NCBI GenBank assembly: GCA_965250285.1
Contig: OZ252299.1
Span: 3,136,001-3,200,000, forward strand
DNA: 64,000 bases
Direction: 5' to 3'
From: Myxococcota bacterium
GTDB taxonomy: Bacteria > Myxococcota_A > UBA9160 > UBA4427
The stretch's first letter is position 1. Every line of letters begins with the position of its first letter. Below are positions 47,328 to 64,000 of the stretch, piece after piece. Both the position numbers and the translations under genes were made by a program. The notes under the pieces were generated by a model. It saw only the letters and a program-made list of their open reading frames with translations. It ran no database searches and was not told the origin of the DNA.

Positions 47328-49100
47328 CTAGGGGGCCCCGGTCTCCGGCGTGATCGAGCCGTCAGCGCCGGGTGTCGCGCCGGCGCCGCCACTCGCGTCC
47401 GCCGTGCCGTATACGATCTCGCCGGCCACGATCGCGATCGCGCCCGCGTCGCCGCCCTGCGATCCGATGACGCCCGGGTTGGCGTTGCCGCCCGAGCTGT
47501 CCATCGCCGGCTCAACATCGACCGAGCCCGTCGCCACGCCCGCCTCGGCGGCGAGGTCGAACGACAGCCCTACGCTGTCGCCACCGGCGCTCTCACCGTC
47601 GCCGCCCCTGGCAGTCAGGCCGTCGAAGCCGAGGAGGTGGATCGCCTGGGTGCCCTCGCTGATGTCGTTCAGTAGGTAGAAGAAGACGCCGCCTCCCGCG
47701 CCGCCCGTGCCATCGCTGGCCAGAGATTCGCCGCCCGTCGCGATCACCCCGCCCGAGACCCAGATGTCGCCCGCCGGAACGTCGAGCTCGCGCTCTTCGT
47801 AGTCGTCGACGCTCGACCCGGTGAAGAAGATTGCGGAGCCACCAACACCGTAGTAGTCGGCTCCGATCTCGCTCGACGCATCTCCGCCGTGAGCGATGAG
47901 CATGCCGCTCGATCGCAGGTCCGCACCCGCCGCCCCGAGGCCTATCTCGCCCCCACTGCCCGGATACACGAACTGGGCGGCGTCATCGGTGGCGTCGCCG
48001 CCATCACTCGTGAGGTCGCCCGTGTTGCGCAGCTCGCCGCGGTAGTAGCCCGCAACCTGGATGGTGCCGCCGTCGCCGCCCTGGCCAACACCATCGCCGC
48101 CGCTCGCCTGCAGATCGCCCGAGTTGCAGAGCGAGGCGTACGGCAGAATCGCGATCCCGCCGCCACTGCCACCGATCCCCGTGGCGCCCGATGCAGCACC
48201 ACCGCTGCTTCGCATGTCGCCCGTATTCTCGATCAGGCCACCGGGCTCACCGTCGAAGTCCACTTGATAGTTGTAGAAGCCGGTGTAGAAATAGATGCCG
48301 CCGCCGTTGCCGGCTCGACCATCGGTCTGATCGGCGCCATACGAGAGCCACGCGCCGCTGTTGTAGCCACGGCCGAGCGCACCGACGTCGATCGGGCCGC
48401 CATCCTGCCCGGGCAACGTGCCGAACGTCTCGATGCCGCCCCTGCCGATGTAATCGCCATCGGTATAGAGATTGACGGCCCCGCGCTGCTCGCTGTCGAC
48501 GTCGACGACCGTGATCGTGCCGTCGTTGACCAGGTCGTGGCTGAAGGTCAGAACGCCGGCCGGCCGACCATTGCTCGATAGATTCAGGCCCAGCGTGACG
48601 GTGGCACCCGCCTGCACCTCGAAGCCAGTCACGGGCGCCTCGTTGCCGAGGATCAGATCACCGTCCGAGACGTACAGGCTCGAGTCGTCTTCGAGCAGGT
48701 ACGGAACACCGAGGGGAGGCGCCGAGAGCACGACCGGAATCGCGAGATCGCCGCTCACGACGAGTGGATTGGGGCCGAGATCGGGCGAGAACGAACCCGT
48801 GGGCACGAAGCTCGCGTCAACCGAACCGCTCTCGCTCACCTCGATCGAGCCCGCACCCCCGAACCAGATCTCGAAGCCGATGAAGCCCCCCAGGCCGCCC
48901 GTGCCACCGGTCGAGCCGGCGTCGCCCCCCGAGACATCGATCGGGTGCGTCGATGCACTCGCGCCTCCGACGCCCGGATTGCAGAGCACCACCGTCGTCG
49001 TCGTGCTCGTGCGGGTCTGCTTGCAGCCCAGGTGGCCCGCACCGAGCAGGCACACGAGCACGAGCGCGCTGATCCGCACGGCCGGAATCGAGCGATGCAT
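47328..49100 (-). CDS. Gly-rich repetitive surface lipoprotein (beta-helix/adhesin-like)
   Basis: HLGC lipobox; repeated NxGxLxAxGG...GGxGGxI units. Confidence 0.7.
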   Translation of the reverse strand: MHRSIPAVRISALVLVCLLGAGHLGCKQTRTSTTTTVVLCNPGVGGASASTHPIDVSGGDAGSTGGTGGLGGFIGFEIWFGGAGSIEVSESGSVDASFVPTGSFSPDLGPNPLVVSGDLAIPVVLSAPPLGVPYLLEDDSSLYVSDGDLILGNEAPVTGFEVQAGATVTLGLNLSSNGRPAGVLTFSHDLVNDGTITVVDVDSEQRGAVNLYTDGDYIGRGGIETFGTLPGQDGGPIDVGALGRGYNSGAWLSYGADQTDGRAGNGGGIYFYTGFYNYQVDFDGEPGGLIENTGDMRSSGGAASGATGIGGSGGGIAILPYASLCNSGDLQASGGDGVGQGGDGGTIQVAGYYRGELRNTGDLTSDGGDATDDAAQFVYPGSGGEIGLGAAGADLRSSGMLIAHGGDASSEIGADYYGVGGSAIFFTGSSVDDYEERELDVPAGDIWVSGGVIATGGESLASDGTGGAGGGVFFYLLNDISEGTQAIHLLGFDGLTARGGDGESAGGDSVGLSFDLAAEAGVATGSVDVEPAMDSSGGNANPGVIGSQGGDAGAIAIVAGEIVYGTADASGGAGATPGADGSITPETGAP

Positions 49101-49624
49101 GAGAACCTCCTCGGCATGTCGGCGTCTCGGCACCCACGCGCAGCCGGCAAGATCTGCAGTCTACGGCACGCGCAAACAGAATCGGCATCTTCGTCGCGAT
49201 CGGCTGCGTCCTCACGCCCGGGTGCGTGCTCGACAGATAGGTCACTCGCAACATGTCGAAATCAAGCCGGGCCCGAGCGCTGAGCGGGGGCGGGGGCGGG
49301 GGCGGGGATCTCGCCTTCCGCCCCGTCGCGCGCGGTCCGTACGCGTCTGCATCTGCGGCGAAGTGCGTGCTGAATTCGGATCTTTCGATCCTGCACCGGG
49401 TCCGACTTGTGCGGCCCGGTCGAGTTCGTGGCATCGCGACCGTTCAGGCGCTGTCGATCACACCCATTGTGAGTTCCGTGAGCGGGCAAGACGCAGGCAG
49501 TTGCGCGGTCGCGATCGCCGCCGAGAACGGACAATGCCGGAAGAGGAAGCACGGCCCTCGCTTGACACGCCTCCAACGAAGGCTCGCGGGGGATTCGCCG
49601 ACCCGCCGCGACACGAACGGGCGT

Positions 49625-50770
49625 CTACTTCTTCGAGTGCACGATCGCGCCGGCCTTCGAGCGGCTGGCGTCGTCCTGCGGCGGGGCGAAGAACCGCTCC
49701 GGGGCCTGCGACGCGTCCCCCCGTTGAATCTGCGTGTTCCGGGCGCCGCCAAAGTCGTTCAGCCCGAGCTGTTCCCGAAAATCCACCGATGCATGGAGTG
49801 ACGTGTCATCCAGGGGAATCCCGCTCAGGTCGGCCGTGCGGACCAGGCCGTTGAAGATCCCCACGATGCCCGACGCCTCGGCCACACCGGCGTCACCCAG
49901 CTCGGCCCGCACGCGCGCGCGGGCCGGGTCCATGTCGTCGCTACCGCGGGTAATGGCCTCGGCAAAGCGCAGCAGGGCCGCACCGTGCGCGACGCCCCCA
50001 TCGCCCTCGCCATCGACCGTGGCGCGCAGTTCGATGTCGACGCCTTCGTTTTCGCCGCTCTCACGGAGCAGGCCGACGTGGGAGGTCGTTCAGTAGAAGC
50101 ACTCGTTCACCGCAGAAACCCGCGCCGCGACGAGCTCGGCCTGGGCGCGCGTGAGCGGGCCGGCCCAGTCGAGGTCGTAGAACCCCCCGCTCTCCCCCGC
50201 GCTGTACATCGCCATGACGTTCTGCATGAAGAGCCGATTGGCACTCGGAACGAGCGACAGTGCACGTCCGACGTTCGGCCCCTGCCACGGCACCATCATC
50301 GGAATGTACGCGCCGGCCTCGCCCGCCTCTGCGAGGCGCTCACCCGTGGGCTCGCCGGGCTCGGGGGTGGGCAGCGGTTCGTGCCCGCGTCCGAGCGCTT
50401 CGCCGAAGGCATCGATCGCCGAGACGGTCGCGACCACCGAGCCGAGCTCGACGTACGGCGCATCACCGAGCGATTCGATCACCTGCTCGGCCCAGGCCCG
50501 GTCGATCTTGTGCGCGTCGGCCGCAATGGTGCGAGCGGCCTCGATGGCGGCGTCGCTGAGCGGCACCTCGGGGTCGGGCAGCGCGCCCCGTGCCCAGGGC
50601 GGGTCGGTGCGCGCCGCACGGGCGGCCCGAGCCTGCCGGGCGATCTCGACGCGCTCGGCCCCCGTCCAGTAGGCCCCCGCCGAGCCGATCTGCTGCCAGC
50701 TGGCACGGTGCAGATCGGCGATCAGATCTCTCACATCGAAGTGATCGCCTGCATAGTCGAATGAGCTCAT
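49625..50770 (-). CDS. AhpD/CMD-like alkylhydroperoxidase-related selenoprotein (381 aa, Sec at UGA 50090-50092)
   Basis: ORFs 50090-50770 and 49625-49933 are in frame; read-through gives ELVAARVSAVNECFY-U-TTSHVGLLR, i.e. AhpD CxxCxxxH with U as the second Cys. Confidence 0.85.
50055..50071 (-). promoter_or_regulatory. Candidate bacterial SECIS hairpin
   Basis: CUGCUC-CGUGA-GAGCGG, loop starting 25 nt after UGA with G at loop position 2. Confidence 0.6.
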
Positions 50771-50877: not shown

Positions 50878-51000
50878 TCGAGCACCAGACCAGATTCGAA
50901 CGGTCGTCCCCTGCCCACATCCGTCCGCCGCCGCACGCTGTGTCGGCGCGCTCATCCGATCTGCTCGCTCATCGCTCGCAGATCGCCCTCACGTTGGCAT
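50878..51000 (-). mobile_element. Degenerate tRNA-Gly 3'-half fragment with insert (att-like copy A)
   Basis: Collinear with copy B at a 216-bp offset; GTTCGAATC T-loop. Confidence 0.6.
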
Positions 51001-51048
51001 GCCTTAAGCGCACGGGCCTCTAGCCCAAAACCGGCTTCGAGCTCTGGA

Positions 51049-51093
51049 TACAAAAACGGCCCGCCCCACTACGTGGGACGAGCCGATTTTGTA
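51049..51093. terminator. Long bidirectional rho-independent terminator directly after the tRNA-like CCA
   Basis: TACAAAAACGGCCCGCCCCAC-TAC-GTGGGACGAGCCGATTTTGTA. Confidence 0.75.
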
Positions 51094-51216
51094 TGGAGCA
51101 CGAGACCAGATTCGAACTGGCATCCCCTTCGCACACCAGACATGCCGTTCCGGCATGTCCGGCGCGCTCATACGATCTGCTCCCTCATCGGTCGCAGATC
51201 GCCCTCAAGTTGGCAA
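51094..51216 (-). mobile_element. tRNA-Gly(GCC)-like 3'-half fragment with ~78-nt insert (att-like copy B, probable island end)
   Basis: Minus strand: TTGCCAA anticodon loop ... GCCAG-TTCGAAT-CTGGT T-arm, CTCGTGC-T-CCA; no 5' half upstream. Confidence 0.7.
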
Positions 51217-51800
51217 AGCGAAAGAAGCGTGAGGGAGGACAGACACTTACGCTCTCGAGTCGGCAGATCGCGGCAGGGGATGACACTCAGCGGCAGCAGG
51301 CACGTCACCGAACGGCTAGACGTCACCTTACTGCGACCGCCCACACCCTCTGGGAGGGTCCGATCACACTCCCGATGACACTCCCATGGACCGGAGCGAC
51401 GACGCAGCCGGCCAGGCCGATTGGCCCTTTCGACCGTTCTGTTAGGATCGATCTGATCAGATCGAGCGGGATCGGAACGGCGGAGTCCACTCGACCCGAC
51501 TGCCTGGCAGTGTCGGCGAATGCCCTCTCTCGGGATGCTCGTGCGCTCGCGGAGGCCCATCGCGACGTGTCCCGCGCATGCCGCCGCCTTGCGATCGATC
51601 TCGTGCTTGGAGGTCAGGGGCGCTGGCCGGAGCGAATCCGGTATGGCCATCGACTGCGAAAGTTCCGAGAACTCCACGTGAAGTTCTCGGGCTGACGAGC
51701 ATCGGGACTCGGTCCGCCCCCGTAACAGCTGGTTCCTTGCCACGGAACCCTGTACCGACCCGCCGGAATCGAAGACGAAGACCTGGACAGGCACGACTCT

Positions 51801-54497
51801 ATGCATCAAGAACTCCTGAGAACGAAGCTCAATCCCCCTGGTACCGGCAGCCTCCATTTCCGGCGCGAGCGCCTGGTTCGCATCCTGGAAGCGGGTGCGA
51901 GCGATCCTTTCGTGCTCGTCTCGGCGCCAGCCGGCTTCGGAAAGACGACGCTGGTCAGCGACTGGCTCTCGTCATGTGACCGGCCGCATGCCTGGCTGTC
52001 GATCGACGAGCGCGACGGCGACCTCCGGCAATTCCTCAGATACATCGTGGCGGCAGTTCGGACGGCCATTCCCGATGCCCTGCCAACGATGGCGCTGACG
52101 GTGCGAGATTCGCCGCTCCCTCCCGTCGACACGCTGTGCACGACCCTCAGCAACGAGCTCGAAGACCTCGACACACCCATCACTCTGGTGATCGACGACT
52201 TTCATCGCCTCGGGTCGTCGCCCGTGCATGAACTGATGGCCGAGATCGTCACCCGGCCACCCCGGCCGCTCCGGTTGATCCTGATCTCGCGCTTCGACCC
52301 CCCGCTTCCGCTGGCGACATTGCGGGCCCATGGATGGAACACGGAGGTCAGAGCAGAGGATCTTCGCTTCACCCGCAGCGAGTCTGCGCATCTGTTGCGC
52401 GAGCTCGCAGGGGGGGACGTGGGCGATAATGCCCTGGGCAACCTGGAGCATCAGAACGACGGCTGGGCGGCCGGGCTCCAGATGATTGCGGTCTCCCTGC
52501 GCGGCCGCGACGACGCGGATGCCTACCTGCGGAACCTCCAGATCGGGCAGAAGTTCGCCCGAGAGTTTCTGGCGCGCGAAGTGCTCGACGTACAGTCCGA
52601 AGATCTGAGAAACTGGCTGCTCAGAGCCTCCATCGCCGAGCGCTTCTGCGCACCTCTCTGCGAGGCCGTTCAGGATCCGAACGAAAACCAAGCCTCGGGG
52701 ATGAGTGGCGAGGACTTCCTCGCAACGCTCGAGGAACGCGGCTTGTTCGTCATCCCCATGGATGCGACCGGGCGATGGTATCGATTTCATCACCTCTTCC
52801 GCGACCTCTTGCGCTCAGAGCTCGCTGCGCGCTGGAACCCCGAGTCGATCACCGAGCTGCACGAGCGTGCGAGTCGCTGGTTCGCCGAGCAGGGCCTCGT
52901 CGAAGAGGCGCTGGATCACGCGCTGATGCTGGGTGACCCGGCGCTGGCGGTAGAGCTGGTCGCCGAAAACCGACACGCTGCAATGAATCAAGAGGACTGG
53001 CACCGCCTGGGTGCATGGCTCGACCGGCTGCCGGCTGGCAGCGCCACGTCGGATCCGAGGATCATGCTCGCCCGTGGCTGGCATCTCTGCCATATCCCGC
53101 GATTCGAGGAAGCCCTCTCGCTGATCGAGGATGTACGCGCGCTGCCCGCCGAAACACGGGCGTGTCACCGCGGCGTCGAGGGCGAGATCGAAGCGATGGA
53201 TGGCCTGCTCGGCTACATCGGCCAGGGCGTCTTTGGTCGGGACCGCGAGAGAGTCATCCGTCACTGCGAGAAGGCGCTGCTGCAACTCCCAGCAGACTTC
53301 GGGTGCATCCGAGGCTATGCGACCTATTTCCTTTCCTTGTCGCACGCTCTAAGCGGCCAGGGCGAGACGGCTCGCACCATTCTCTGGCGGGCAATGGAAG
53401 AGGACAGTGCGACCGGTGCCGCCTGTCAAGCTCGCGTCCGGAGCGCCCTCGCCCACGTCCTCTTCCGGGCGGGCGACTTGAGGGGGACGCTGGTCGCAGC
53501 ACAACAGCAACTCGACGTGGGGAGTACGCATGACCTCCCTGAAACAGTGCAGATGGCGCGGTCCACGTTGGGATGGTCTCACTATCTGAGGGGTGAGATC
53601 GACCAAGCCGAGGAGCACTTCAAGGCAGGCTCAGCCGCCATCGGAGCCTCGACGCCGGCTCCTCATGCCGAGAGCCACATCGGTCTCGCGCTCAGCAAAC
53701 GGGCTCGGGGAGACGGCGTCGACGCACGCGAGTCCATCGCGTCGCTCACCGCCTCGGCCATCGCGCGCGGCGCGAGCGCCTGGATCGAACACGGGCGCCT
53801 GTATCAGGCCGAGATCGCTCTTCTCGACGGACGGACAGCGGAGGCTCAGGCGCTGCTGAAAGGGATCGAGAAGCCACGCGCCTTCGGCTTCTACTACGAC
53901 GCGGAGCTGACGATCGCGAAGGCCCGCCTGGCAGATGGCGGGGAGGCTGCTCTGAGCGAAGCGGTCTCGATGCTCGAAGCGATGCGACTGCGCCTGGAGG
54001 ACAGACACGACATCATGCGCCTCGGCCCCGTGCTGGCCGTCGAGGCGCTGGTTCATCGGGCCCTGGGTGAAGAGACCGCCGCGATCTCGTTCCTCGAGGC
54101 CTCACTCGCCGCAACCGAGATCGGAGAGGCCATCCAGCCCTACCTCGACCTGGGTGCGCCCATGGCTGCGCTGATGCGAGAGCTCCCTAGCCCGGCGTGC
54201 GACTCGGAACATGCTCGCCGAATCCTCGCGGCCTCGAGCGGCGAATCAGATGGGCAGCCTGCAACTACGGAAAGACGACATCGACCTGAAGAGACCGGAC
54301 TGATCGAGCCGCTCACCAACCGGGAGCTCGATGTTCTGGAGCTCCTGGCCGAGCGATATCGCGACAAGGAGATCGCCGAGAAGCTCGTCATCTCGCCCGG
54401 TACGGTCCGATCGCACCTGAAGCGCGTCTACGGCAAGCTCGGCGTGAGCGGGCGACGAGAGGCGGTGGCTCGGGCCCAAGGCCTCGGTCTCATCTAG
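51801..54497 (+). CDS. MalT-like STAND ATPase / LuxR-HTH regulator
   Basis: LLRTKLNPP, APAGFGKTT, LVIDDFH, WYRFHHLF, C-terminal LTNRELDVL...TVRSHLKRVYGKL. Confidence 0.93.
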   Translation: MHQELLRTKLNPPGTGSLHFRRERLVRILEAGASDPFVLVSAPAGFGKTTLVSDWLSSCDRPHAWLSIDERDGDLRQFLRYIVAAVRTAIPDALPTMALTVRDSPLPPVDTLCTTLSNELEDLDTPITLVIDDFHRLGSSPVHELMAEIVTRPPRPLRLILISRFDPPLPLATLRAHGWNTEVRAEDLRFTRSESAHLLRELAGGDVGDNALGNLEHQNDGWAAGLQMIAVSLRGRDDADAYLRNLQIGQKFAREFLAREVLDVQSEDLRNWLLRASIAERFCAPLCEAVQDPNENQASGMSGEDFLATLEERGLFVIPMDATGRWYRFHHLFRDLLRSELAARWNPESITELHERASRWFAEQGLVEEALDHALMLGDPALAVELVAENRHAAMNQEDWHRLGAWLDRLPAGSATSDPRIMLARGWHLCHIPRFEEALSLIEDVRALPAETRACHRGVEGEIEAMDGLLGYIGQGVFGRDRERVIRHCEKALLQLPADFGCIRGYATYFLSLSHALSGQGETARTILWRAMEEDSATGAACQARVRSALAHVLFRAGDLRGTLVAAQQQLDVGSTHDLPETVQMARSTLGWSHYLRGEIDQAEEHFKAGSAAIGASTPAPHAESHIGLALSKRARGDGVDARESIASLTASAIARGASAWIEHGRLYQAEIALLDGRTAEAQALLKGIEKPRAFGFYYDAELTIAKARLADGGEAALSEAVSMLEAMRLRLEDRHDIMRLGPVLAVEALVHRALGEETAAISFLEASLAATEIGEAIQPYLDLGAPMAALMRELPSPACDSEHARRILAASSGESDGQPATTERRHRPEETGLIEPLTNRELDVLELLAERYRDKEIAEKLVISPGTVRSHLKRVYGKLGVSGRREAVARAQGLGLI

Positions 54498-54513
54498 CCG
54501 AGCAGAGCGCCAC

Positions 54514-55504
54514 TCAGCTCCCTCCGAGCAGCGGGTTCCCGATGAGCGAAGGGATGACCGGGATGATGTCAAACTTCATCATCGCCACCTTGCCGAACGA
54601 GTCCGGGCTGACCACGGAATACTCGAGCCCAACGTTGATCCGCACTGGGAACTCACCGAAGTTGACCGTCTTTGCGACGCTGATCCCGACCGGCACGGTC
54701 CACTGCTCTCCCTTCGGCTCATTCGCGTTGAACGTGATCGTCGGATCGAACCCGATCTGCCATCCATCCTTCAGGTTGATGTTGAAGTAGTAGAGCATGC
54801 TGAGCTGGCTCAGTTCGGACTTCTGAGTCGGATCGAAGTCGTTTCGATCCGCGACGCGAAAGTAGTACTGCGGCCAGATGAACGCCGTGAAGTGCTTCGG
54901 CGTTGTACCCGAACGTCACGGTTGGTCCGACGCCGACCTGCTGCGACCCGAGCGCGTCATTCGTCGAAGACGGGAAGGAGAAGGTCGGGCCCACTCCGAT
55001 GATCCACCGTCCCGCCGGCGGCGAGACGACGAGTGGCAGCACGATGTCGCCCAGGCCGGCTGCCGACGTGAACTCATCCTGCGCGCCTGTCGGCACGGGT
55101 GTGCTGAGCGTGATCGGAATGACCGGGCGCGTGATCAGCCGCCACTCCTTCTCGCCCTTGCCATGGAGCGGGATCGGCAGTACAGGCTCGAAGAGCAGGT
55201 TGCCGCCGTACTCTGGCCCATCCTCGGCCACGTTCCCGTTGTTGAACGTGAGCTCGAACTCCGTGAACAGCGCCCAGATGTCTGAAGTCGGGTCTGCGAG
55301 CTTGCGGGCAATGTCTCCGAGGCCGCCGTGCTCGGGGTGCTTGTACTCCTTCTTCTCCGGCTTCGCGCCTTCTTGCGCTGCGGCCGCCTCGTCTGTCGCT
55401 CCGTCGGTCTCGGCAGCTCGTGCGACGGTGGCCAGCGCGGGTAAGAACAATAGGACCATCATGAAGAATGTGATCTTGATCCGCGGCTGAGCAGCGAAGG
55501 TCAT
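54514..55504 (-). pseudogene. Outer-membrane beta-barrel/transporter-like protein, frameshifted near 54895-54900
   Basis: Signal peptide, LADPT, FEPVLP, LITRP, GLGDI, GVGPT; continues in a shifted frame as KHFTAFIWPQYYF...WTVPVG...IIPVIP. Confidence 0.75.
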
Positions 55505-55598
55505 GAGGTGATCTCCGTCAGTTGGCCCTGCCGCGTCGGGCAGTGCGGACCATTTTCGACTCACGATGTCGGAGGTCGAGGCGTCTTCAGGACGGCGA

Positions 55599-55997
55599 TC
55601 AGCCGCTGCCCTCGACGAACGCCTTGAGCCGCGTCAGAGCCGCGCCCCAATGGGTGTTGCAGTACCCCATGCTGGGGTCGCCATCCTTCCACGCGCCGTC
55701 GCTGAAGTTGACGAGCGTGCCGCCATCTACGTCGGACAGCTCGAACGTGATCTTCTTGCCGACGTCGCCAGGCCCCTCGACTCCTTCCTGGACGAGTCGC
55801 GTGTCCTCGACCATCTCGAGGGTTTTCCAGGCAAAGCTGAGATGGGGCTTGGCCTTCATCGACACGGTGGCGCCGACGGCAATTTCGCCCTCGACCCCGG
55901 CGTAGTGCCACTTCTCGAAGTCGGTCACGTTCGTGAGAGCTTCGTAGACCTTGTCTCTCGGCGCGGCGATCTTGATCGTGTGGTGAAGCGTCGTCAT
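55599..55997 (-). CDS. SRPBCC/AHSA1 ligand-binding protein
   Basis: IKIAAPRDKVYEALT, GGTLVNF, CNTHWGAALTRLKAFVE. Confidence 0.85.
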   Translation of the reverse strand: MTTLHHTIKIAAPRDKVYEALTNVTDFEKWHYAGVEGEIAVGATVSMKAKPHLSFAWKTLEMVEDTRLVQEGVEGPGDVGKKITFELSDVDGGTLVNFSDGAWKDGDPSMGYCNTHWGAALTRLKAFVEGSG

Positions 55998-56008
55998 CGT
56001 GGATCTCC

Positions 56009-56251
56009 TCACTTCTTTCGCAGCGGGGGAATCGCCGGCATCATCGGAAAGTTGTCCAGGTCGTTCGGATCCAATTTGAACGTCGGGTCGTACTTGTCCC
56101 GGTCCGTCATGTAATCGGGCTCTGTGCTGCGGAAGGTGTAGTTGCAGGTCTTGCACATGTAGACGTCCCACACGCCCTTGACAGGCGACGAGAACACGAC
56201 ATCGAGCGTCTTGGAGCCGCAGCGGGGACAGATCGTGAAGGCATTGGCCAT
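56009..56251 (-). CDS. Non-oxidative hydroxyarylic acid decarboxylase subunit D (VdcD/BsdD-like)
   Basis: CPRC, SPVKGVWDVYMCKTCNYTFRSTEP, PAIPPL. Confidence 0.9.
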   Translation of the reverse strand: MANAFTICPRCGSKTLDVVFSSPVKGVWDVYMCKTCNYTFRSTEPDYMTDRDKYDPTFKLDPNDLDNFPMMPAIPPLRKK

Positions 56252-56263
56252 GGGTCGAGTCTC

Positions 56264-57709
56264 CTACTTGCTTGCGTTCGCGAGGTTCTGAATCAAGGCT
56301 TGCACCTTCGGCAGCCACTCCTCGGCTTCGGGCGGATTGTTGATCTGCATCGCGTAATCGCCGTGATCGTCCGGCGGGGCAGGTGTCGCCGCGTCCAGGA
56401 TGATCTTGTCTGTGATGCCGACCGGATCGGACCCCGGGTCGAGTGCGAGGACCGAGTGGTTCGGCACGACCATGCAGTCGAACCTGGGGTTGAACTTCGT
56501 CGACAGTGCCCACATGACCTGCGGCAGGTTGAAGGGGTCGACATCGGCATCGACGATGATGACCACCTTCGCGTAGCCGGTGCCGTGCGGTGTCTGCAGC
56601 ACCGACATCCCGACTGTCTTGGCGAAGCCGCCAACTCTCATCTCGGTCGACACGATCACCACCAGGCCGTGGGTATAGAGCGCGTTCACGTCGACGACTT
56701 CGGGGAACGAGTCCTTGAGCTGCACGTAGAGCGCGGCACCCGTGTTGATGAACATGTAGTCGATCTCGGTCCAGGGCATTCCGATCGCGCAGTACTCGTA
56801 GATCGGATTGTTCCGGTGATAGACCTTCTTCACGTTGACCGAGCACATGAGTCGACAGCCCGAAAGATGACCCGTGAACTCGCCGTAGGGGCCGTCGGGC
56901 ATTCGGACGCGGGGCAGCACCTCGGCCTCGATCACGATCTCGCTGCCCCAAGGCACCTGCAGGCCGTTTTCCATCGTCACCACCGGGTACGGTGCGCCAT
57001 CGGCCATGGCGCTGCACATCGTGTACTCGTCCTGGTCGTACAGCAGCGGCATGCTGGCGATCAGCGGGACGATCGGCTCGTTCCCCATGGTGATATAGAT
57101 CGGTAGAGGCTCGTTTCGCTCTTCGGCGGCCTTGAAGTGCAGCGCGATGTCGTGATCCGGCACCATCTGCATGCTCAGATGGTTCGTCCCCTGGACCTGG
57201 ATCCTATACATCCCGACGTTCTGATCGTCGAAGCTGTCCATGCGGTCGGGGTGGCGAGAGACGACCGAGGACTTGTTGAGGAAGAAGCCGCCGTCCCCCG
57301 GGTTCAGACGGAAGAGCGGCAACAGCTCGAACAGATTGACGTCGTCGCCTTCGATCACGTTCTCTTGCCAGGGCGCGCTGTCCATCTCTTCGATGCTGCC
57401 TTTCTCGAAGTTCTGGTAGCGGCGGTTGAACTCGCGCGCGATGTCCTTGAGCGGAGTGTCCTTCGGCATGCCGAAGGCGAGCGCGATGTTCGGCCACGAC
57501 CCGTGCACGTTCGACACGAGCTTGGCGTCGCTCGTGTACCCCTTGATGTTGTCGAAGGCGATCGCGGGTGCCGTGTCACCGACCCCCTTGTTGTTTGCGC
57601 TCAGGATCGCGGAGATGTCGGGTTCGGGCAGAACCGGATCTGTCATGTGAATCATCTGCCCTTCCTTTTCCAGTAGCTCGAGGAATCCTCTGAAGTCCTT
57701 GTGCGCCAT
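56264..57709 (-). CDS. UbiD-family prFMN decarboxylase, subunit C (VdcC/BsdC-like)
   Basis: NVHGSW, FRLNPGDGGF, NVGMYRIQV, DGPYGEFTGH, MPWTEIDY, DVDPFNLPQVMWAL. Confidence 0.92.
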   Translation of the reverse strand: MAHKDFRGFLELLEKEGQMIHMTDPVLPEPDISAILSANNKGVGDTAPAIAFDNIKGYTSDAKLVSNVHGSWPNIALAFGMPKDTPLKDIAREFNRRYQNFEKGSIEEMDSAPWQENVIEGDDVNLFELLPLFRLNPGDGGFFLNKSSVVSRHPDRMDSFDDQNVGMYRIQVQGTNHLSMQMVPDHDIALHFKAAEERNEPLPIYITMGNEPIVPLIASMPLLYDQDEYTMCSAMADGAPYPVVTMENGLQVPWGSEIVIEAEVLPRVRMPDGPYGEFTGHLSGCRLMCSVNVKKVYHRNNPIYEYCAIGMPWTEIDYMFINTGAALYVQLKDSFPEVVDVNALYTHGLVVIVSTEMRVGGFAKTVGMSVLQTPHGTGYAKVVIIVDADVDPFNLPQVMWALSTKFNPRFDCMVVPNHSVLALDPGSDPVGITDKIILDAATPAPPDDHGDYAMQINNPPEAEEWLPKVQALIQNLANASK

Positions 57710-57803
57710 CATCTCTACTCCCACGCAGTCACTTTGGATCGCTCTCGCTGCCGAAGCCGACGTTCGGCTTTTTCGAGTCGAGAGCCTTGTTCGTCGAGAA
57801 CGC

Positions 57804-57935
57804 CTATTGGTCGTCGAATCCCCACCGAGACCAGTTGTCGAGCACCTTTTGCTTGATCGGCTCGGGGATGTGGCTCGAGCGCGAGCCGCGCACGGTTCGG
57901 GATGGAGTTCGCTTCGAGGAGATCCTCTCGGCTCG
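57804..57935 (-). pseudogene. Remnant 3' end of an Fdc-like UbiD paralog
   Basis: Encodes PEPIKQKVLDNWSRWGFDDQ*, matching the 58789 gene's PDPVRQKVLENWSRWGFAK*. Confidence 0.75.
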
Positions 57936-57936
57936 A

Positions 57937-58347
57937 TCACCCCCCACCCTGCGCCTTCCATGCCGCCTCTTCGGGGCTGCCGGGGACGGGAAGGATCTTG
58001 CCCCCCTCGATGCAATGGCTTGCATCGACTTCGCCCATCACGATTTCGATCTCGCCGGAAGCACACCCGAGGGCGTCGGCGAACGCCTTGCGGATCCCGG
58101 TCTCGATCTTGGCCTTGTCCTCGTCGGTCCTTCCCGCGCGGATCGTGGCGTTCAGGTAGGCCAGCTTTCCTTCCGGCAAATCGGGGAACCCGACCTCGGG
58201 GTCGGCCTCCTCGGAGAAGAAGGCATTCACGAACTGGCGAGGGGCTCCCGTCACATCCACATGGGTCGTGAAGATCCCCTCGGCCATTCTCGAGCGCTGA
58301 TCCTCGGTGGTCGCGCCCGGTTTGACCGTCGTCAGATAGATCGGCAT
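57937..58347 (-). CDS. Tautomerase superfamily protein (cis-CaaD-like, Pro-1)
   Basis: MPIY start, THVDVTGAPRQFV, TIRAGRT, IEGGKILP. Confidence 0.85.
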   Translation of the reverse strand: MPIYLTTVKPGATTEDQRSRMAEGIFTTHVDVTGAPRQFVNAFFSEEADPEVGFPDLPEGKLAYLNATIRAGRTDEDKAKIETGIRKAFADALGCASGEIEIVMGEVDASHCIEGGKILPVPGSPEEAAWKAQGGG

Positions 58348-58392
58348 GAGTCTCCCCTCTCGGTCCGGATCGGGTCCGGACATGTCGGCGCT

Positions 58393-58704
58393 CTAGGTCG
58401 TCACTGTGACTTCGTTCGAGTCGACCCCGGTCTTCTCGACCCACAGGTCACTGAGCGACTTCAGGAGCTTCACACGGTCGTCGTAGGCGATGTCGTTCGG
58501 GACGTCGCAGCGAATCACGGTCGTCGTGCTGGGGTTGCCGCCGGTCCAGGCGAAGCCCTGGTCGACGGACCGCCAGAAGACGGGCGTCGAGGCTGCGTCC
58601 TGACCGAACTGGTCCACCGCGATCCTCTGGATGCCTTCCACCAGCTCGTGTTTTCGCGCGTCGGCCGCCTGGCCCCCTTGGACCAGCACTCGATACTTGG
58701 TCAT
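58393..58704 (-). CDS. Tautomerase-fold protein lacking Pro-1
   Basis: MTKYRVLV...RKHELVEGI...FAWTGGNPS...LWVEKTG, two beta-alpha-beta units. Confidence 0.55.
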   Translation of the reverse strand: MTKYRVLVQGGQAADARKHELVEGIQRIAVDQFGQDAASTPVFWRSVDQGFAWTGGNPSTTTVIRCDVPNDIAYDDRVKLLKSLSDLWVEKTGVDSNEVTVTT

Positions 58705-58788
58705 CTGTGTTCTCCTTGGAGTCGGTCCGCCTTCGTGCCGAGCCACTCGTTCGAGTGACTCGGCACGCGCTACAGCGGTCGTCGAGCT

Positions 58789-60315
58789 CTACTTGGCGAA
58801 TCCCCATCGTGACCAGTTCTCGAGCACCTTCTGCCGGACGGGGTCCGGGTAGTTCGTCTCGAAGGTCAGGATGTTCTCCAGCTGCTGCCCGGTCTTGCCT
58901 TCGATGGGCAGGCAGCTGTACGCCGTCAGGCCACTGCCGTGGATGAAGTCGCTCTGGCTGTGATAGGCCTCGAGCCCCGTCCCGACGACGTTCTCGATCT
59001 CGGGGAAGTAGAACGTGCTCCGCGTCGGGTGATTCCGGGTCGCGAAGGCCCAGCACACCTCGAGGGCGCTATCGGGATCGACGTCCTCGTTCACCACGAT
59101 GATCTTCGTGGTGATGTTGCCCACGTGCTGCGACCAGAGCGTCGTGCCGATCTTCCGGACGAACTCCTCCATGCCCAACCCGGTCTTCTGATGCCAGTCG
59201 TTGTCGACGCGAATGACCAGCCACGCCAGGGCAGACTCCATCGTCAGCATGCTGTCGATCACGGGGAGCCCCTCCTTCTGCAAGGCGACGGTGACGTCGC
59301 CCGACATGAAGAAGCCCATGCCGACGGTGCACGAGTCGATCGGCTTTCCCGGCACCGAGACGGGGAAGAGCGGGTTGTTGCGGTACGTGACGTGGGTGAC
59401 GGTCACCCGTGCGCGGTTCGCCGTATCGAAGGGCAGGTAGCCCTGATACTCGCCGAACGGCCCTTCCACCTCCATCGCATCCTTCGAGACGAAGCCTTCG
59501 AGGACGATCTCGGAATCGGCCGGCACCAACAGGTCGTTCGTGTCGCACTTGACCATGCGGATGCCTTCGCCGAGCAGCCGGCTGGCATAGTCGTACTCGT
59601 TCGTGAAGTCGGGCGCCTTCGCCGACGACTGCGTGAGAACGACCGGCGGCACACCGAACGCCATCGCCCACGGCGTGTCCTGCCCTTCCTCGGTCCACTG
59701 ATCGTGCACCATGCCGTTGTGCTGCGAAGAGAGCCAGAGACCCGTCATCGTGGTCTCGTTCACGATCATCGCGCGATTGATCGACCAGCTCGTCCAGCTC
59801 TCGTCTGGAGTCCGAACGATGTTGACGCCCGCGGTTCCGATGTAGCGAGCAGCGTCGCCGTCATGACAGAGCGGCGCGGGGATCTTGTAGATGTCGATCT
59901 CGTCGCCGGTCCACGTGTTCTCCTTGCACGGCGCATCCGACGCATCGACGATGACCGGCTCGTGCACCTCCGTGCCCTCTCGAGCCTCGAGGTACGCCTT
60001 CTGGATGTCCATCAGGCCGGTTTCGGGCGGAAGGCCGAGCATGGCCGCGAGGCGGCACCACTCCCGCCCTGGCGTGCTCGACTTCGTGTACCCGATGTCG
60101 CAGGCGCGGAAGCCTTCGCCCTCTGGCGTGCCCTTGATGTTGTTGAAGATCGGCGTCGGAGCCAGCGTCTCGTAGGAGTGACGGCAGACTGCACCCATCT
60201 CGAGATGCGTGTCGATCTCGTCATCGATCTCGACCGCCTCCCCCATCTTCTTGAGGTTCTCGATGTATTCGCGATAGGTGCGCGGGATCTTTGCTCGGTC
60301 GATCGAAACTGACAT
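58789..60315 (-). CDS. UbiD-family prFMN decarboxylase (Fdc1-like)
   Basis: HDGDAARY, WSINRAM, LLVPADSEIVLEG, EGPFGEY, WAFATRNHP, NWSRWGF. Confidence 0.92.
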   Translation of the reverse strand: MSVSIDRAKIPRTYREYIENLKKMGEAVEIDDEIDTHLEMGAVCRHSYETLAPTPIFNNIKGTPEGEGFRACDIGYTKSSTPGREWCRLAAMLGLPPETGLMDIQKAYLEAREGTEVHEPVIVDASDAPCKENTWTGDEIDIYKIPAPLCHDGDAARYIGTAGVNIVRTPDESWTSWSINRAMIVNETTMTGLWLSSQHNGMVHDQWTEEGQDTPWAMAFGVPPVVLTQSSAKAPDFTNEYDYASRLLGEGIRMVKCDTNDLLVPADSEIVLEGFVSKDAMEVEGPFGEYQGYLPFDTANRARVTVTHVTYRNNPLFPVSVPGKPIDSCTVGMGFFMSGDVTVALQKEGLPVIDSMLTMESALAWLVIRVDNDWHQKTGLGMEEFVRKIGTTLWSQHVGNITTKIIVVNEDVDPDSALEVCWAFATRNHPTRSTFYFPEIENVVGTGLEAYHSQSDFIHGSGLTAYSCLPIEGKTGQQLENILTFETNYPDPVRQKVLENWSRWGFAK

Positions 60316-60445
60316 TCTGGAAGGTCTCCATGGTTCGAGTTGCGGTGAAGGGGCAGCGGTACCGCCGGGCCGTCCGGTCGGTCACGCCAGGTAGTCGTTC
60401 TCCACGACGGCCGGGCGTATGCCGTGTCGAGGAGCTCACGCGTCT

Positions 60446-61111
60446 TTACGCTTCTTCCCGCGATGCGAGGGACCGAGTGGACTCCTCGAAGTCGTTCGTT
60501 TCGGCCTGCCAGTCGCGGCCGTTCTCTCCTCGCTGCTCGCGATGCAACCGACCGCCTTGCCAGCGGTTGACGACACCCGGGTCGATGTCGAACAGATCGA
60601 GCACACGACCCACGCTGTGCAGCACCTGGTCGTCGATCGTCTTCGGCTCGTTGTAGAAGGCCGGCATCGGCGGCGAAATGATCGCGCCCATCTGCGCCGC
60701 TTCGTACAGCAGCTTGCAGTGGCCAACGTGGAGCGGGGTCTCGCGCACCATCAGCACGAGCTTTCGCCGCTCCTTGAGCACGACGTCGGCTGCGCGCACG
60801 AGCAGGCTGTCAGCGAAGGAGTTCACGATGCCCGAGAGCGTCTTGATGGAACACGGCGCCACGATCATTCCGTCCGTGTGGAACGAGCCGCTCGAGATCG
60901 CGGCGGCCTGATCCCGAAAGTTGTGGACGACGTCGGCCTGGGCCTCGACTGCCTTCGCCGAGTAGGGTGTCTCGATCTCGATGTTCTGCTTCGCGTGCGG
61001 ACTCATGACGAGGTGGGTTTCGACGGAGGGGTCCGTCGCGAGTACCTCGAGCATGCGCGCGCCATAGACGACGCCCGATGAGCCTGACATACCGATGATG
61101 ATTCTCTTCAC
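60446..61111 (-). CDS. ubiX: Flavin prenyltransferase UbiX/Pad1
   Basis: GMSGSSG, ISSGSF, APCSIKTLS, RAADVVLKERR, RETPL, PPMPAFY. Confidence 0.96.
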   Translation of the reverse strand: MKRIIIGMSGSSGVVYGARMLEVLATDPSVETHLVMSPHAKQNIEIETPYSAKAVEAQADVVHNFRDQAAAISSGSFHTDGMIVAPCSIKTLSGIVNSFADSLLVRAADVVLKERRKLVLMVRETPLHVGHCKLLYEAAQMGAIISPPMPAFYNEPKTIDDQVLHSVGRVLDLFDIDPGVVNRWQGGRLHREQRGENGRDWQAETNDFEESTRSLASREEA

Positions 61112-61911
61112 ACGTCGCTCCTCTCTCTGTGGCCCGCCGGCGCCTGCGCGCTGCTCAAGGCGACGCTGATCAAATCGCCGTCGACGATGCCGAGTTCATC
61201 CCGCACGCCGGCCTCAGCGATGACTTCGATCTGGTCGGCGGGGTAGTCTTCTACGTCGGGCAACACGATGGCCGCGCGCCCGATCGAGTGGATCTCGACG
61301 GGGAAGCATCGGGCGCCGCAGCTCTCGGCCTCGTCGCTCGGCGGGTCGATGGGGATGCCTGGCGTTGCTCGCAGGCCGCTCCAGATCGCGCGTGATTGCG
61401 CATCCACCAAACGTGCGTTCAGGGTGCCCGGGTGTGGATCGATCCCGAGCTTGCCGACGAGCTCGGCGCGAACCCAGTCGAGTTGCGTGAAGCCACTGGC
61501 GACGCCCGCGCCGGTCACGACGCGGCCACAGATCGTTCGATGTGCGGCCTCGGACTGGTCTGCCCACTCGAGAAACGTGACCGGGATGCCGTCTGGGTCA
61601 CGAAGCTGGAAGACGCGAGCGCCCCACGACGTCATCTCGGGCGGTGGCGTATCGAGCCCCAGGCGAAGGTGCGCCCCCACGGCGTCTTCGACTTCGATCA
61701 CGAGATGAAAGCGTTCGCCCGGCGAGTGGATCGCGAGAGGAGAACGCTCGCGGCCATTGTCGAGCACCTCGAGGGTCATCCCGCCGAGGTCGAAACGTTG
61801 GCCTCGGCCATTCGCGCGATCCCACTCCGCGATGAGCGGAAGACGAAGCGTGTCGCCGTAGAACTCGACGACTGCGTCGAAGTCGTCTGTCGCAAGGGCG
61901 ACGTAGCTCAT
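61108..61911 (-). CDS. VOC domain fused to CTP-dependent riboflavin kinase (DUF120/archaeal-type)
   Basis: N-half YVALAT...FYGDTL...SWGARVFQLRDPDG; C-half GRVVTGAGVASGF...LGIDPHPGTLN...IEVIA...RDELGIVDGD. Confidence 0.82.
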   Translation of the reverse strand: MSYVALATDDFDAVVEFYGDTLRLPLIAEWDRANGRGQRFDLGGMTLEVLDNGRERSPLAIHSPGERFHLVIEVEDAVGAHLRLGLDTPPPEMTSWGARVFQLRDPDGIPVTFLEWADQSEAAHRTICGRVVTGAGVASGFTQLDWVRAELVGKLGIDPHPGTLNARLVDAQSRAIWSGLRATPGIPIDPPSDEAESCGARCFPVEIHSIGRAAIVLPDVEDYPADQIEVIAEAGVRDELGIVDGDLISVALSSAQAPAGHRERSDV

Positions 61912-63029
61912 GCCGACATCCTTCGTTCGGCGCCCGCATCGAGCGTGTCGAGCGGTGAAGCGCACATCGGCAGGACCTCTTCGATCAGCAGCCGCTCGCT
62001 TCGCTCCCACTCGGCGCGCTCGGCCGTCGCGTCGTAAGCGACGCTCAGAAGGGTTCCGAAGCCCCCGGTCTTCGACTGCAGCTCCGAGATCGACTCCGCC
62101 ACGGTCTCGGGCGAGCCAACGAGCCAGATGTGGTCGGCGAGATACTCGAGATCGATCGCTTCATCGGGGATCGAGGGCTCGGTCTTCAGCAGTGGCCCGA
62201 GGCCCAGGCCGAGGTAGACCGGCAGGAGAAACTCGCGCCAGCAACGTCCCATCATCCCTTCGATGGCGAGCTCGCGCGCCTCCGCGTCCGTGGGCGCAAC
62301 GTAGACGTCGCGCACGACCCGCCAATCGTTACGGTCGGCGACGCGACCGACCGCAGCAGCCCCCTCTGCCACGGTGTCCCAGTGCTTCGCGGTCTCTTCC
62401 GGATCCGGGCCAATGCTGAGACTGACGGGGATGTACCCGCGCTCCCCGGCAAGTCGGTGGTTCGCCGAGCCTTGCGTCATGCCCGCGATCGCGATCGGAG
62501 GATGGGGCTGCTGCAGCGGGGTGACGTGGTACCCGAGCCCCGCGATATCGCTCTGGACAGCGCCCATCGACCAGAACTCGCCCTCGGTGTCGCCATCGCC
62601 GTGAAGCCAGAGGCGCGTCATGAGGTCGAGCGCCTCGAAGGTCATGCGCCGATTGCGTCCGAACTCATCTCCGAGCGCGAAGAGCTCACGGTCGGAGGGC
62701 AAGGCGCTGATCCCGACCCCGAGCTGGTAGCGGCCCTCGGCCATGTGATCGAGATACGCGACGCGATGTGCGAGCTCGACGGGGTGGTGATACGGGAGCA
62801 GGTGACCGAGCGGGCCGAGCCGAATGCGTTCGGTGCGCTGAAGCGCCTGCGCGATCAGGAGATCGGGCGCCGGGCAGGGCTCCCAGGGCGCGGTGAAATG
62901 CTCGCCGATCCACGCCTCGGTGTACCCGAGGCGATCGAGGCGCTCGAGCTCTTCGAGGTCGGCGAGCTGGCCCTCCCGCATGCTTCGTTCGGGGGGATGA
63001 GACGGCATCAGCAGCGCACCAAGCTTCAT
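61908..63029 (-). CDS. LLM-class flavin-dependent monooxygenase (limonene monooxygenase-like)
   Basis: MPSHPP, AWIGEHFT, LPYHHP, LDHMAEGR, WLVGSPETV. Confidence 0.9.
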   Translation of the reverse strand: MKLGALLMPSHPPERSMREGQLADLEELERLDRLGYTEAWIGEHFTAPWEPCPAPDLLIAQALQRTERIRLGPLGHLLPYHHPVELAHRVAYLDHMAEGRYQLGVGISALPSDRELFALGDEFGRNRRMTFEALDLMTRLWLHGDGDTEGEFWSMGAVQSDIAGLGYHVTPLQQPHPPIAIAGMTQGSANHRLAGERGYIPVSLSIGPDPEETAKHWDTVAEGAAAVGRVADRNDWRVVRDVYVAPTDAEARELAIEGMMGRCWREFLLPVYLGLGLGPLLKTEPSIPDEAIDLEYLADHIWLVGSPETVAESISELQSKTGGFGTLLSVAYDATAERAEWERSERLLIEEVLPMCASPLDTLDAGAERRMSA

Positions 63030-63284
63030 TTCGTGCTCCTCGTCGTCACGCCGCTCATGAGATCTCTTCACCCGGATGAATCTCGACGGCGTCCAGATCC
63101 GGGCAACGACCTGCGATCGATGCGACGCATCCAACCCCTCATTGCCTTGGTGGCGAAGTCGCTCGAAAGGAGAGCCGAAGGGTCTTGCGTCTCGATCGGC
63201 GGACACACTAAGTGCCGCCTACCTGAGTGACCTGCCCGGAAACTGGGGAATTTTGAGGGAATGGGTGCGCGCGCAGGACGACGG

Positions 63285-63527
63285 CTATTCGATGACGATG
63301 ACTTCGACGATCGGCAGGTGCAGGTCGTGCAGCGCATTGAGCACCCCGATGAGCTGCGACTGGTCGGCCACTTCGCCCTCGAGGGTGGACACGGGTGGGT
63401 GACCGTCAGACGTGACCCTCGAGATCTTCAAGCCGGCGACGAGGGGCCGCATCGCGGGATCGAACCAGCCATCCACGACGATCCGATAGTGACCCGGGTT
63501 CCACATGCGTTGGCTCGGTCGCTGCAT
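63285..63527 (-). CDS. Small ACT-like hypothetical protein of the type often found beside MalT-like regulators
   Basis: YRIVVDG...STLEGEVADQSQLIGVLNALHDLHLPIVEV. Confidence 0.7.
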   Translation of the reverse strand: MQRPSQRMWNPGHYRIVVDGWFDPAMRPLVAGLKISRVTSDGHPPVSTLEGEVADQSQLIGVLNALHDLHLPIVEVIVIE

Positions 63528-63830
63528 GCCTCGCCCCCGCGCTCGTTGACGCAACACACGTCGAGGTCAGGCGTCGCACCCTGAAAACGGGACGCGCACT
63601 CGTCCCGGCAGTGCACCGCGCACCTGGAGCCGCATCGCCCTACTACGACGACCATTCGAATCTAGTCGCGCACCTGAACGCCGGCCTCTCCTGTAACCGG
63701 ACAATTACTGGGTACCCGGCTCCTGGCCATGCACCGAAGACCTGACAAAACTGATGGGTTCGCGAAATCGATCTCGAGTAGTTCGACATCGGCCGGTGAC
63801 ACGGACTTTTGCTGGAGTACTGTGGTTCTG

Positions 63831-64000
63831 ATGGAGCCCGCCCCCTTCGGTCCTGCAGCAAACGACGAAGCCAACCGACTCAGTCGGCCGGGCGAAGAAT
63901 GGGTCGTTCTGGTCAACGAGCGCGACGAGCAGATCGGCGTGATGGAGAAGCTCGATGCGCATCGCGATGGAGGGAGGCTCCATCGCGCGTTCTCGGTGTT
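63831..64000 (+). CDS. idi: Isopentenyl-diphosphate delta-isomerase type 1, N-terminal part
   Basis: Not in ORF track. Translation: ...EEWVVLVNERDEQIGVMEKLDAHRDGGRLHRAFSV. Confidence 0.88.
   Translation, partial: MEPAPFGPAANDEANRLSRPGEEWVVLVNERDEQIGVMEKLDAHRDGGRLHRAFSV

Follow-up and report, generated by a model that had tools for sequence, protein, structure and literature searches.

We analysed a stretch of 64,000 nucleotides (the window) from a Myxococcota bacterium (contig OZ252299.1, positions 3,136,001 to 3,200,000), which carries a prenylated flavin mononucleotide (prFMN) decarboxylase cluster. An earlier note on this DNA had described a co-oriented run of genes for a luciferase-like (LLM) protein, a VOC–riboflavin kinase fusion, UbiX, two UbiDs, two tautomerase-fold proteins, a D subunit and an SRPBCC protein, with a divergent type-1 isopentenyl diphosphate isomerase (IDI) gene. 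Open reading frame (ORF) calls and HMM/Pfam scans confirmed the run. The named genes were all there, co-oriented on the minus strand, and two 4-bp overlaps were found, one between the LLM and VOC–kinase genes (61908-61911, ATGA) and one between the VOC–kinase and UbiX genes (61108-61111, GTGA). The idi gene is on the opposite strand as described but is not the immediate neighbour, as an ORF of 73 aa intervenes. The first tautomerase assignment held, while the second gene lacks the N-terminal proline (Pro-1) and scores below the Pfam cut-off. The genes are as follows (clades of UbiD are explained below).

55599..55997, minus strand: SRPBCC/AHSA1 ligand-binding protein (PF08327), with a homolog in 46 of 124 homologous loci
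56009..56251, minus strand: VdcD zinc-ribbon activator subunit (NF041205, 103 bits; cut-off 30)
56264..57712, minus strand: UbiD2, VdcC-like hydroxyarylic-acid decarboxylase (NF041204, 626.5 bits; cut-off 650)
57816..57875, minus strand: remnant of another clade-A ubiD 3' end (65% to UbiD1 residues 487-506)
57937..58347, minus strand: cis-CaaD/Cg10062-like tautomerase with N-terminal Pro (PF14832 above cut-off; PDB 5UIF, 7M58 and 3N4G)
58393..58704, minus strand: tautomerase-fold-like partner without Pro-1 (PF01361, E 0.006, below cut-off)
58789..60315, minus strand: UbiD1, Fdc1/HudA-branch decarboxylase of clade A (TIGR00148 above cut-off)
60446..61111, minus strand: UbiX flavin prenyltransferase (NF004685 and TIGR00421 above cut-off; best PDB match 1SBZ)
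61108..61911, minus strand: fusion of VOC (1-118, PF00903) and archaeal-type CTP-dependent riboflavin kinase (120-255, PF01982)
61908..63029, minus strand: LLM protein (PF00296)
63285..63506, minus strand: 73-aa protein of no known family, between LLM and idi
63831..64000, plus strand: 5' part of type-1 idi (201 aa, gene end at 64436; NF002995 and TIGR02150 above cut-off)
64433..65092, past the window edge: glutathione S-transferase (GST), convergent to idi, from the ORF map

The type-1 idi scored 198.8 bits with NF002995 (cut-off 127) and 138.3 with TIGR02150 (cut-off 105.8). The earlier note had allowed that it might head an unrelated terpenoid operon beyond the window; this is not the case, as the convergent GST gene follows it. 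Pfam and NCBIfam scans gave no match for the 73-aa ORF. A promoter scan returned 0 sites, and its 5 terminator-like sites were at chance level.

Homologous loci were collected by alignment with the VOC–kinase fusion. This gave 515 metagenome and 268 genome matches, and the 80 best of each set were fetched. The VOC domain was present in 124 of these 160 loci. Neighbours were counted within 10 kb, and many contigs were short; all loci are VOC-selected, and kinase counts are inflated because the fusion was the query. The 124 VOC loci contained LLM in 112, ubiX in 101, ubiD in 83, kinase in 16, tautomerase in 6, idi in 3, GST in 2, and VdcD in none. For the 40 loci flanked by 3 kb or more on each side, the counts were 38 for LLM, 36 for ubiD, 35 for ubiX, 23 for SRPBCC, 5 for kinase and 2 for idi. 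LLM was within 150 nt of VOC in 110 of 112 loci despite variable gene order, and 37 of the 38 well-flanked LLM–VOC loci contained ubiD or ubiX, with the genes arranged in many ways. LLM, VOC and UbiX were contiguous in the window and in most loci. The LLM was 66-74% identical in 85 full-length homologs. Named carriers belong to Acidobacteriota, Pseudomonadota, Verrucomicrobiota and Actinomycetota, and cultured ones include Microbulbifer agarilyticus DP4N21-6, Silvibacterium bohemicum S15 and Terracidiphilus gabretensis S55. The M. agarilyticus locus is the closest, with the order GST–idi–LLM–UbiD1–VOC–UbiX and a UbiD1 81% identical to that of the window.

The conserved unit is thus a mobile LLM–VOC–UbiX–UbiD cassette with optional supply genes, and its invariant core is LLM–VOC. 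This unit is not the one proposed in the earlier note; kinase, idi, tautomerases and VdcD are optional, and the main signal, a constant LLM–VOC beside an exchanged UbiD, had been missed there. A plasmid search gave no match of at least 60% to LLM, UbiD1 or UbiD2, a viral collection gave only one 47-residue fragment, and the matches in a protein atlas were all to generic VOC clusters. No description of the cassette was found in the literature searched; subscription papers and supplements were outside its scope, and a neighbourhood supplement could list the cassette.

The partner UbiDs formed three groups in a quick tree. Clade A lies on the Fdc1/HudA branch (23 rows, including UbiD1 of the window). 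Clade B has 3 near-identical rows, with 6DA6 as the nearest structure. Clade C has 39 rows and no close structure; its best PDB matches are 6H6X/6H6V, which we take to be HmfF. The clade C UbiDs (L100:7260-8858 and 38 related loci) come from Acidobacteriaceae and Acetobacteraceae, score below every NCBIfam cut-off and have a C-terminal extension of about 100 residues past the profile. Clades A and B grouped with phenylphosphate carboxylase alpha. A single clade for the cassette UbiDs was rejected by the approximately unbiased (AU) test (p-AU 0.024; 22 rows, 12 cassette and 10 other, LG+G4, L092 left out, the group having been chosen once the first tree was known).

The median identity between clades A and C was 24% for UbiD, 50% for UbiX, 59% for VOC and 70% for LLM, and the LLM identity within clade C was also 70%. 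When only columns with a conservation of 85% or more in each of the two groups were counted, A and C had fixed differences at 51 of 107 positions in UbiD, 21 of 93 in UbiX, 1 of 46 in VOC and 0 of 182 in LLM. The 59 LLMs reduced to 36 groups at 85% identity, and the rows are not all independent. UbiD pocket motifs were of at least five types and varied even inside clade A. Some clade C loci kept UbiD and had lost the local ubiX. From these sequences, we infer at least two replacements of ubiD and ubiX beside a persisting LLM–VOC. Because LLM–VOC remained constant while UbiD was swapped, the target of the pair would be something common to all partner UbiDs. These enzymes share their cofactor by definition; they would share a substrate or product only in the case of convergence.

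The reading that we favour, tentatively and at a little less than an even chance, is that LLM–VOC and the supply genes constitute a prFMN service cassette. UbiX would make reduced prFMN (prFMNH2), for which the fused kinase and IDI would likely raise flavin mononucleotide (FMN) and dimethylallyl diphosphate (DMAPP). LLM–VOC would likely carry the oxygen-sensitive prFMNH2 and ripen it to the active iminium, with VOC binding the flavin phosphate and LLM applying O2/C4a-peroxyflavin chemistry to prFMNH2. It is established how UbiX acts, that VdcD is an activator and that dedicated maturation helpers exist. The precursor boost by kinase and IDI, taken alone, is probable. LLM–VOC would be a new helper in prFMN ripening, as PhdC and LpdD are in other systems. 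The most specific version is doubtful: that LLM is a new maturase converting prFMNH2 to the iminium through a C4a-peroxy species, that VOC stacks the flavin and carries it among UbiX, LLM and any UbiD, and that with kinase and IDI they would form a complete portable prFMN factory in at least four phyla, serving unrelated decarboxylases.

Helpers of this kind have been described. PhdC and YclD are reported to oxidise a prFMN radical and to activate non-cognate UbiDs (PMC13040415). PhdABC of Mycolicibacterium fortuitum and YclD of Priestia megaterium resemble the cassette in combining UbiD, UbiX and a flavin-fold accessory (PMC13040415), but PhdC is small and HpaC-reductase-like, whereas here a TIM-barrel LLM and a VOC would be the accessories, accompanied by precursor genes. 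The LpdBCD gallate decarboxylase also has a small accessory by ubiX. This protein, LpdD, is co-transcribed and is reported to bind and handle prFMNH2, and its authors expect further unidentified helpers; it is reported to be rare (PMC10865409), has a different fold and lacks a monooxygenase-like partner. Since LLM is a luciferase-like TIM barrel and its partner a VOC by model, the likeness to PhdC, YclD and LpdD is by analogy only. For Fdc1, maturation has been proposed to proceed via a C4a-peroxo species (PMC5818171). Many UbiDs are inactive when expressed. The cassette offers two candidate helpers from folds that had no prFMN link in the literature searched. If the favoured reading is true, nature would provide in it a module for supplying the cofactor, with which UbiD biocatalysts for carboxylation and alkene production could be activated.

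The LLM model (pLDDT 86.5) is a luciferase-like TIM barrel. Its nearest structure is 3,6-diketocamphane monooxygenase (DKMO; 4UWM; 34% identity, TM 0.85), an FMNH2/O2 enzyme reported to work via C4a-hydroperoxyflavin (PMC4631483). The LLM keeps equivalents of DKMO His46 and Glu52, but the flavin contacts His10 and Ser44 are replaced by Met8 and Gly42. Limonene 1,2-monooxygenase is 43% identical. No reductase lies near the cassette: a tblastn search for flavin/FMN reductases with six queries gave 1 match in 160 loci, 10 kb off. The idea that Met8/Gly42 might mark a prenyl pocket was considered and rejected, since both residues are also present in a stand-alone relative at 47%.

The LLM might itself use or degrade prFMN, so that UbiX serves the LLM as well as the UbiDs, or the LLM clears damaged cofactor. 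The contiguity of LLM, VOC and UbiX in most loci, with translational coupling in the window, would fit, and so would Met8/Gly42 at the DKMO flavin contacts. The same two residues in the stand-alone relative speak against it, the contacts are reported to vary even between the two DKMOs (PMC4631483), and the clade C loci that keep UbiD without a local ubiX are hard to reconcile with it. We consider this explanation very improbable.

The VOC model had its top matches in a tie that includes riboflavin-bound TnmS3 (5UMX; Z 13.5, rmsd 2.2, 109 aligned). Invariant residues of the cassette VOCs are Arg32, Arg36, Arg39, Trp30, Trp96 and Trp116, a set that would suit a flat phosphorylated ligand. About half of what we take to be the usual VOC metal-ligand set is kept. 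Among the 120 matches listed for the fusion, about 50 were full-length (both domains, 46-58%), and riboflavin kinase was the sole long fusion of this VOC found among the matches listed. A 580-aa LLM (P0213) and a 207-aa LLM–VOC piece (P0057) were considered as further fusions and rejected, as they look like artefacts.

The kinase domain scored 89.5 bits with PF01982 (cut-off 25) and has the GxG, PGTLN and EI motifs; NCBIfam full-length archaeal models were below cut-off. Its model matched the MJ0056/RbkR fold (Z 16-17 to 2VBV/5TRD). By family, fold and motifs, the domain is predicted to be a CTP-dependent riboflavin kinase. Unlike MJ0056/RbkR, it is bacterial, fused to VOC and additional to the host RibF. 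The kinase was found in 9 of 22 clade A loci versus 0 of 39 clade C loci. Genomic kinase loci without VOC had ubiD or ubiX within 10 kb in 8 of 33 cases, versus 0.25-0.63 expected if 2-5 ubiD/ubiX loci per 4 Mb are assumed, as we did. In one of them, part of a phenylphosphate carboxylase cluster, only 23 nt separate ubiX from the kinase gene that follows it. Because the other 25 of the 33 loci have neither ubiD nor ubiX, the kinase is a general flavin add-on. Bacterial CTP-dependent riboflavin kinases (P0058-P0120; L132, L137, L152, L155, L159) are often HAD-fused and lie in aromatic-catabolism or molybdo-flavoenzyme-like clusters, as labelled by inspection.

The idi gene lay beside the cassette in 3 of 22 clade A loci versus 0.03-0.06 expected under assumed densities, and in 0 of 39 clade C loci. 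Two of the three cassette idi copies were 81% alike, and with the window copy they make three lineages with 36-50% identity between them. The window and Microbulbifer idi were 36% identical, though their UbiD1s are 81% identical. Microbulbifer idi was present in 2 of 58 genomes, one of them being the cassette copy. None of the five other idi genes fetched (the second Microbulbifer copy and four more) was beside a cassette, and the one kinase locus fetched from relatives had no cassette genes. In clade B, two near-identical loci (L024 and L025) have a gene for a RibAB fusion after ubiX. Supply genes were recruited repeatedly yet are optional, and most homologous loci have neither kinase nor idi.

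UbiX scored 254.9 with NF004685 (cut-off 188) and 216.6 with TIGR00421 (cut-off 108.9). Its His165 is at the beta-phosphate, DMAPP-linked position (PaUbiX 181), where DMAPP users carry His or Gln; cassette UbiXs likewise have His or Gln and never Phe (53 of 53), but this residue is reported not to be the sole DMAPP determinant (PMC6541611). The proposal of the earlier note that the locus supplies both cofactor precursors stands in part. The sole genomic idi, the recurrence of idi and kinase near ubiD or ubiX, and His165 agree with it. A fixed "self-provisioning" design does not, given the host RibF and IspH and the absence of both genes from clade C loci.

The two UbiDs scored 285 and 350 with TIGR00148 (cut-off 244.85). 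UbiD1 belongs to the branch of the ferulic/cinnamic acid decarboxylase Fdc1 (Fdc1/Pad1) and of the pyrrole-2-carboxylate decarboxylase HudA of Pseudomonas aeruginosa (PMC7976604), scores alike to Fdc1 and HudA (330-343 bits) and has the intact Arg/Glu284/Glu289 triad. Tyr290, Cys329 and Met333 are at the positions of HudA Tyr279, Asn318 and Trp322, and the Phe432 segment differs, so that of the four HudA residues only the Tyr is kept. Compared with the Fdc1 pocket, Tyr replaces Met after the catalytic Glu, and the ETHTMI and GFPL segments are replaced. The pocket resembles that of HudA but is an exact match to neither enzyme, and the "cinnamate-type" label given to UbiD1 earlier was not borne out. 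From its pocket residues, the substrate of UbiD1 is possibly a heteroaromatic acid.

UbiD2 has 7AE4 as its best PDB match (489 bits) and is 52-53% identical to annotated VdcC; as it falls below the VdcC cut-off, it was filed as VdcC-like only. Its triad is Arg170/Asp273/Glu278, and 72 of 75 locus UbiDs have Glu at the Asp273 position (3 unmatched). The Fdc1 E277D variant is reported to stay active (PMC5818171). The adjacent VdcD has two CxxC motifs, at 8 and 33, as expected for VdcCD. Because UbiD2 and VdcD are VdcCD-like, a hydroxybenzoate is the likely substrate (PMC8379154), in agreement with the earlier assignment. The pair resembles VdcBCD/BsdBCD in having a UbiD with a zinc-ribbon D subunit, C before D (7AE4; PMC8379154). 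Differences are that ubiX lies 2.7 kb upstream and also serves a second UbiD, that Asp replaces the first triad Glu, and that the VdcC cut-off is not reached. VdcCD looks like a late plug-in sharing one UbiX, because it comes after the ubiD remnant, probably a recombination scar, and is absent from 124 of 124 homologous loci. UbiD1 and UbiD2 would act on different acids. The idea that monooxygenase and tautomerase steps belong to one linear pathway with both decarboxylases is unlikely, because VdcCD was found in 0 of 124 and tautomerases in 6 of 124 homologous loci.

The cis-CaaD-like tautomerase (57937-58347) keeps Pro2, His29, Arg70, Arg73 and Glu114, which presumably fill the cis-CaaD signature roles (Pro-1, His, two Arg and Glu). 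The partner ORF (58393-58704) begins MTKY, so the catalytic Pro-1 is absent. The two-gene pair is possibly a heteromeric tautomerase-superfamily enzyme. A second pair, with and without Pro-1, is located among tRNA-Ser genes elsewhere in the genome, without UbiD (C1:4570742-4571424, L173), and is 36% and 42% identical to the island tautomerases.

The cassette may instead be a catabolic or detoxifying operon, the main alternative and only somewhat less probable than the service cassette. Unrelated UbiDs would converge on one acid class (e.g. five-membered heteroaromatic or acrylic), LLM would oxygenate or epoxidise the decarboxylated product, and VOC, GST and tautomerase would handle the reactive intermediate, with kinase and idi still feeding flavin and prenyl pools. 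The LLM is indeed DKMO/limonene-monooxygenase-like. UbiD1 has Tyr290/Cys329 at HudA Tyr279/Asn318, and N318C HudA is reported to accept or favour furan- and thiophene-2-carboxylate (PMC7976604). The best PDB matches of clade C (6H6X/6H6V) are in line with a heteroaromatic class, and AraC regulators, barrel-like genes, GST (2 loci and the window) and tautomerases (6 loci) recur. However, the pockets differ widely, even within clade A, while the LLM has zero fixed differences. Neither a reductase nor an onward catabolic step is conserved: of the 112 loci, 14 have an AraC regulator and 11 a hydrolase, the commonest neighbours outside the core, and 11 is also the highest number of loci in which any downstream catabolic gene recurred. 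The VOC has a flavin kinase fused to it and retains only about half of the usual metal ligands. If the catabolic explanation is true, the loci would represent a catabolic route that is new to the literature, together with two UbiD clades that are common in the metagenomes sampled and have yet to be characterised.

Several observations weigh against the service cassette. The cofactor activity of LLM–VOC is a prediction from genes and models. AnFdc1 is reported to mature its own cofactor unaided (PMC13040415). The nearest characterised or annotated relatives of the LLM are substrate monooxygenases, and relatives at 43-44% sit in ordinary catabolic clusters. A sister LLM subfamily (46-53%) was found in 103 of 400 Acetobacteraceae genomes and stood alone in 29 of 29 loci fetched; because it stands alone, the older job of the fold is not tied to UbiX. 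Many generic VOCs are within 1 Z of the TnmS3 match. The AraC regulators and barrel-like genes point to a substrate that acts as inducer. With RibF and IspH in the host, kinase and idi are not essential, and the kinase could meet the FMN need of the LLM itself. LLM labels cluster by clade (4 changes, minimum 2), with short inner branches in the LLM tree. Clades A and C could act on the same substrate, because UbiD specificity is reported not to be fixed by tree position (PMC7976604). The Symploca locus L095, the one exception among the 38 well-flanked loci, has LLM–VOC without ubiD or ubiX within about 10 kb. The VOC was the route to every cassette locus; LLM-anchored genome samples gave no new ortholog of at least 60% (0 of 250 genomes; 0 of 300, with one 47% match; 0 of 400, with 103 matches at 46-53%), with only 4-7 candidates scored per genome, so that misses are possible. 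Within 1.5 kb of the stand-alone LLM genes (L186-L214), no conserved neighbours were seen.

The cluster is located in an island of 23,088 bp between tRNA-Gly(GCC) and a copy of the tRNA 3' region. Further features at its left end are as follows.

50880..51215, no strand: copy of the tRNA-Gly 3' end with a downstream palindromic element, an att-like direct repeat forming the left island junction
51801..54497, plus strand: MalT-like LuxR regulator (NF003420, 341 bits, below cut-off)
54514..55504, minus strand: outer-membrane-barrel-like gene with a single frameshift near 54900 (two frames match the same homolog)

The junction repeat is 92.6% identical over 272 nt to C1:3209528-3209797, which adjoins tRNA-Gly(GCC). 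The GC content is 64.1% in the island versus 69.5% and 68.7% in the flanks. No integrase was recognised among the island ORFs scanned. A unit of about 216 nt (tRNA-Gly 3' end and palindromic element) is in tandem at both ends (50880-51215 and C1:3209478-3209967), which suggests successive insertions. The sole ubiD, ubiX and idi matches of the genome are in the island. The host also encodes IspH and a kinase of the RibF type, but its genome gave no match above cut-off for a type-2 IDI. IspH yields DMAPP directly. Among 60 relatives (68-99% complete), there were 0 matches for UbiD1, 3 for type-1 idi and 1 weak match for the CTP-dependent kinase. A 22,466-nt contig of run X1 matched 51094-64000 with zero differing letters; run X1 may be the source sample of the window, making this an assembly check and not an independent occurrence. 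Contig depth inside versus outside the island differed in direction between runs and was not used.

Such an island might be a patchwork, in which idi, GST, kinase, tautomerases and VdcCD are hitch-hikers at a tRNA hot spot, unlinked to prFMN supply, and only ubiX–ubiD is a functional unit. The island repeats and the ubiD scar are in keeping with this, as are the tautomerase pair elsewhere in the genome without UbiD, the lack of VdcD in 124 homologous loci and the 0 of 5 other idi genes beside a cassette. Yet idi recurs as three divergent lineages (36% to Microbulbifer despite 81% for the UbiD1s), and one of the only two Microbulbifer genomes with idi has it beside the cassette. The kinase is fused in frame, and elsewhere lies 23 nt from ubiX in the phenylphosphate carboxylase cluster. 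The LLM–VOC linkage has outlasted many rearrangements. A mere patchwork is improbable.

The gene at 54514-55504 extends the co-oriented run past the SRPBCC gene; its barrel label is putative, and the Pfam scan gave no match. Because the run contigs list no indel at the frameshift, the gene is probably a real pseudogene. Just outside the island, two minus-strand ORFs of 226 and 102 aa (49625-50770) had no match in the Pfam scan; the pair presumably resembles an AhpD/peroxidase-related pair. A 601-aa Gly-rich protein (47328-49133), also without a match in the Pfam scan, is probably secreted. The 73-aa protein (63285-63506) has a 63% paralog at C1:3201263-3201475. MalT-like regulators bracket the cluster, at 51801-54497 and, past the window, at 65976-68684 (L001:2976-5684), and the two are paralogs with 50% identity.

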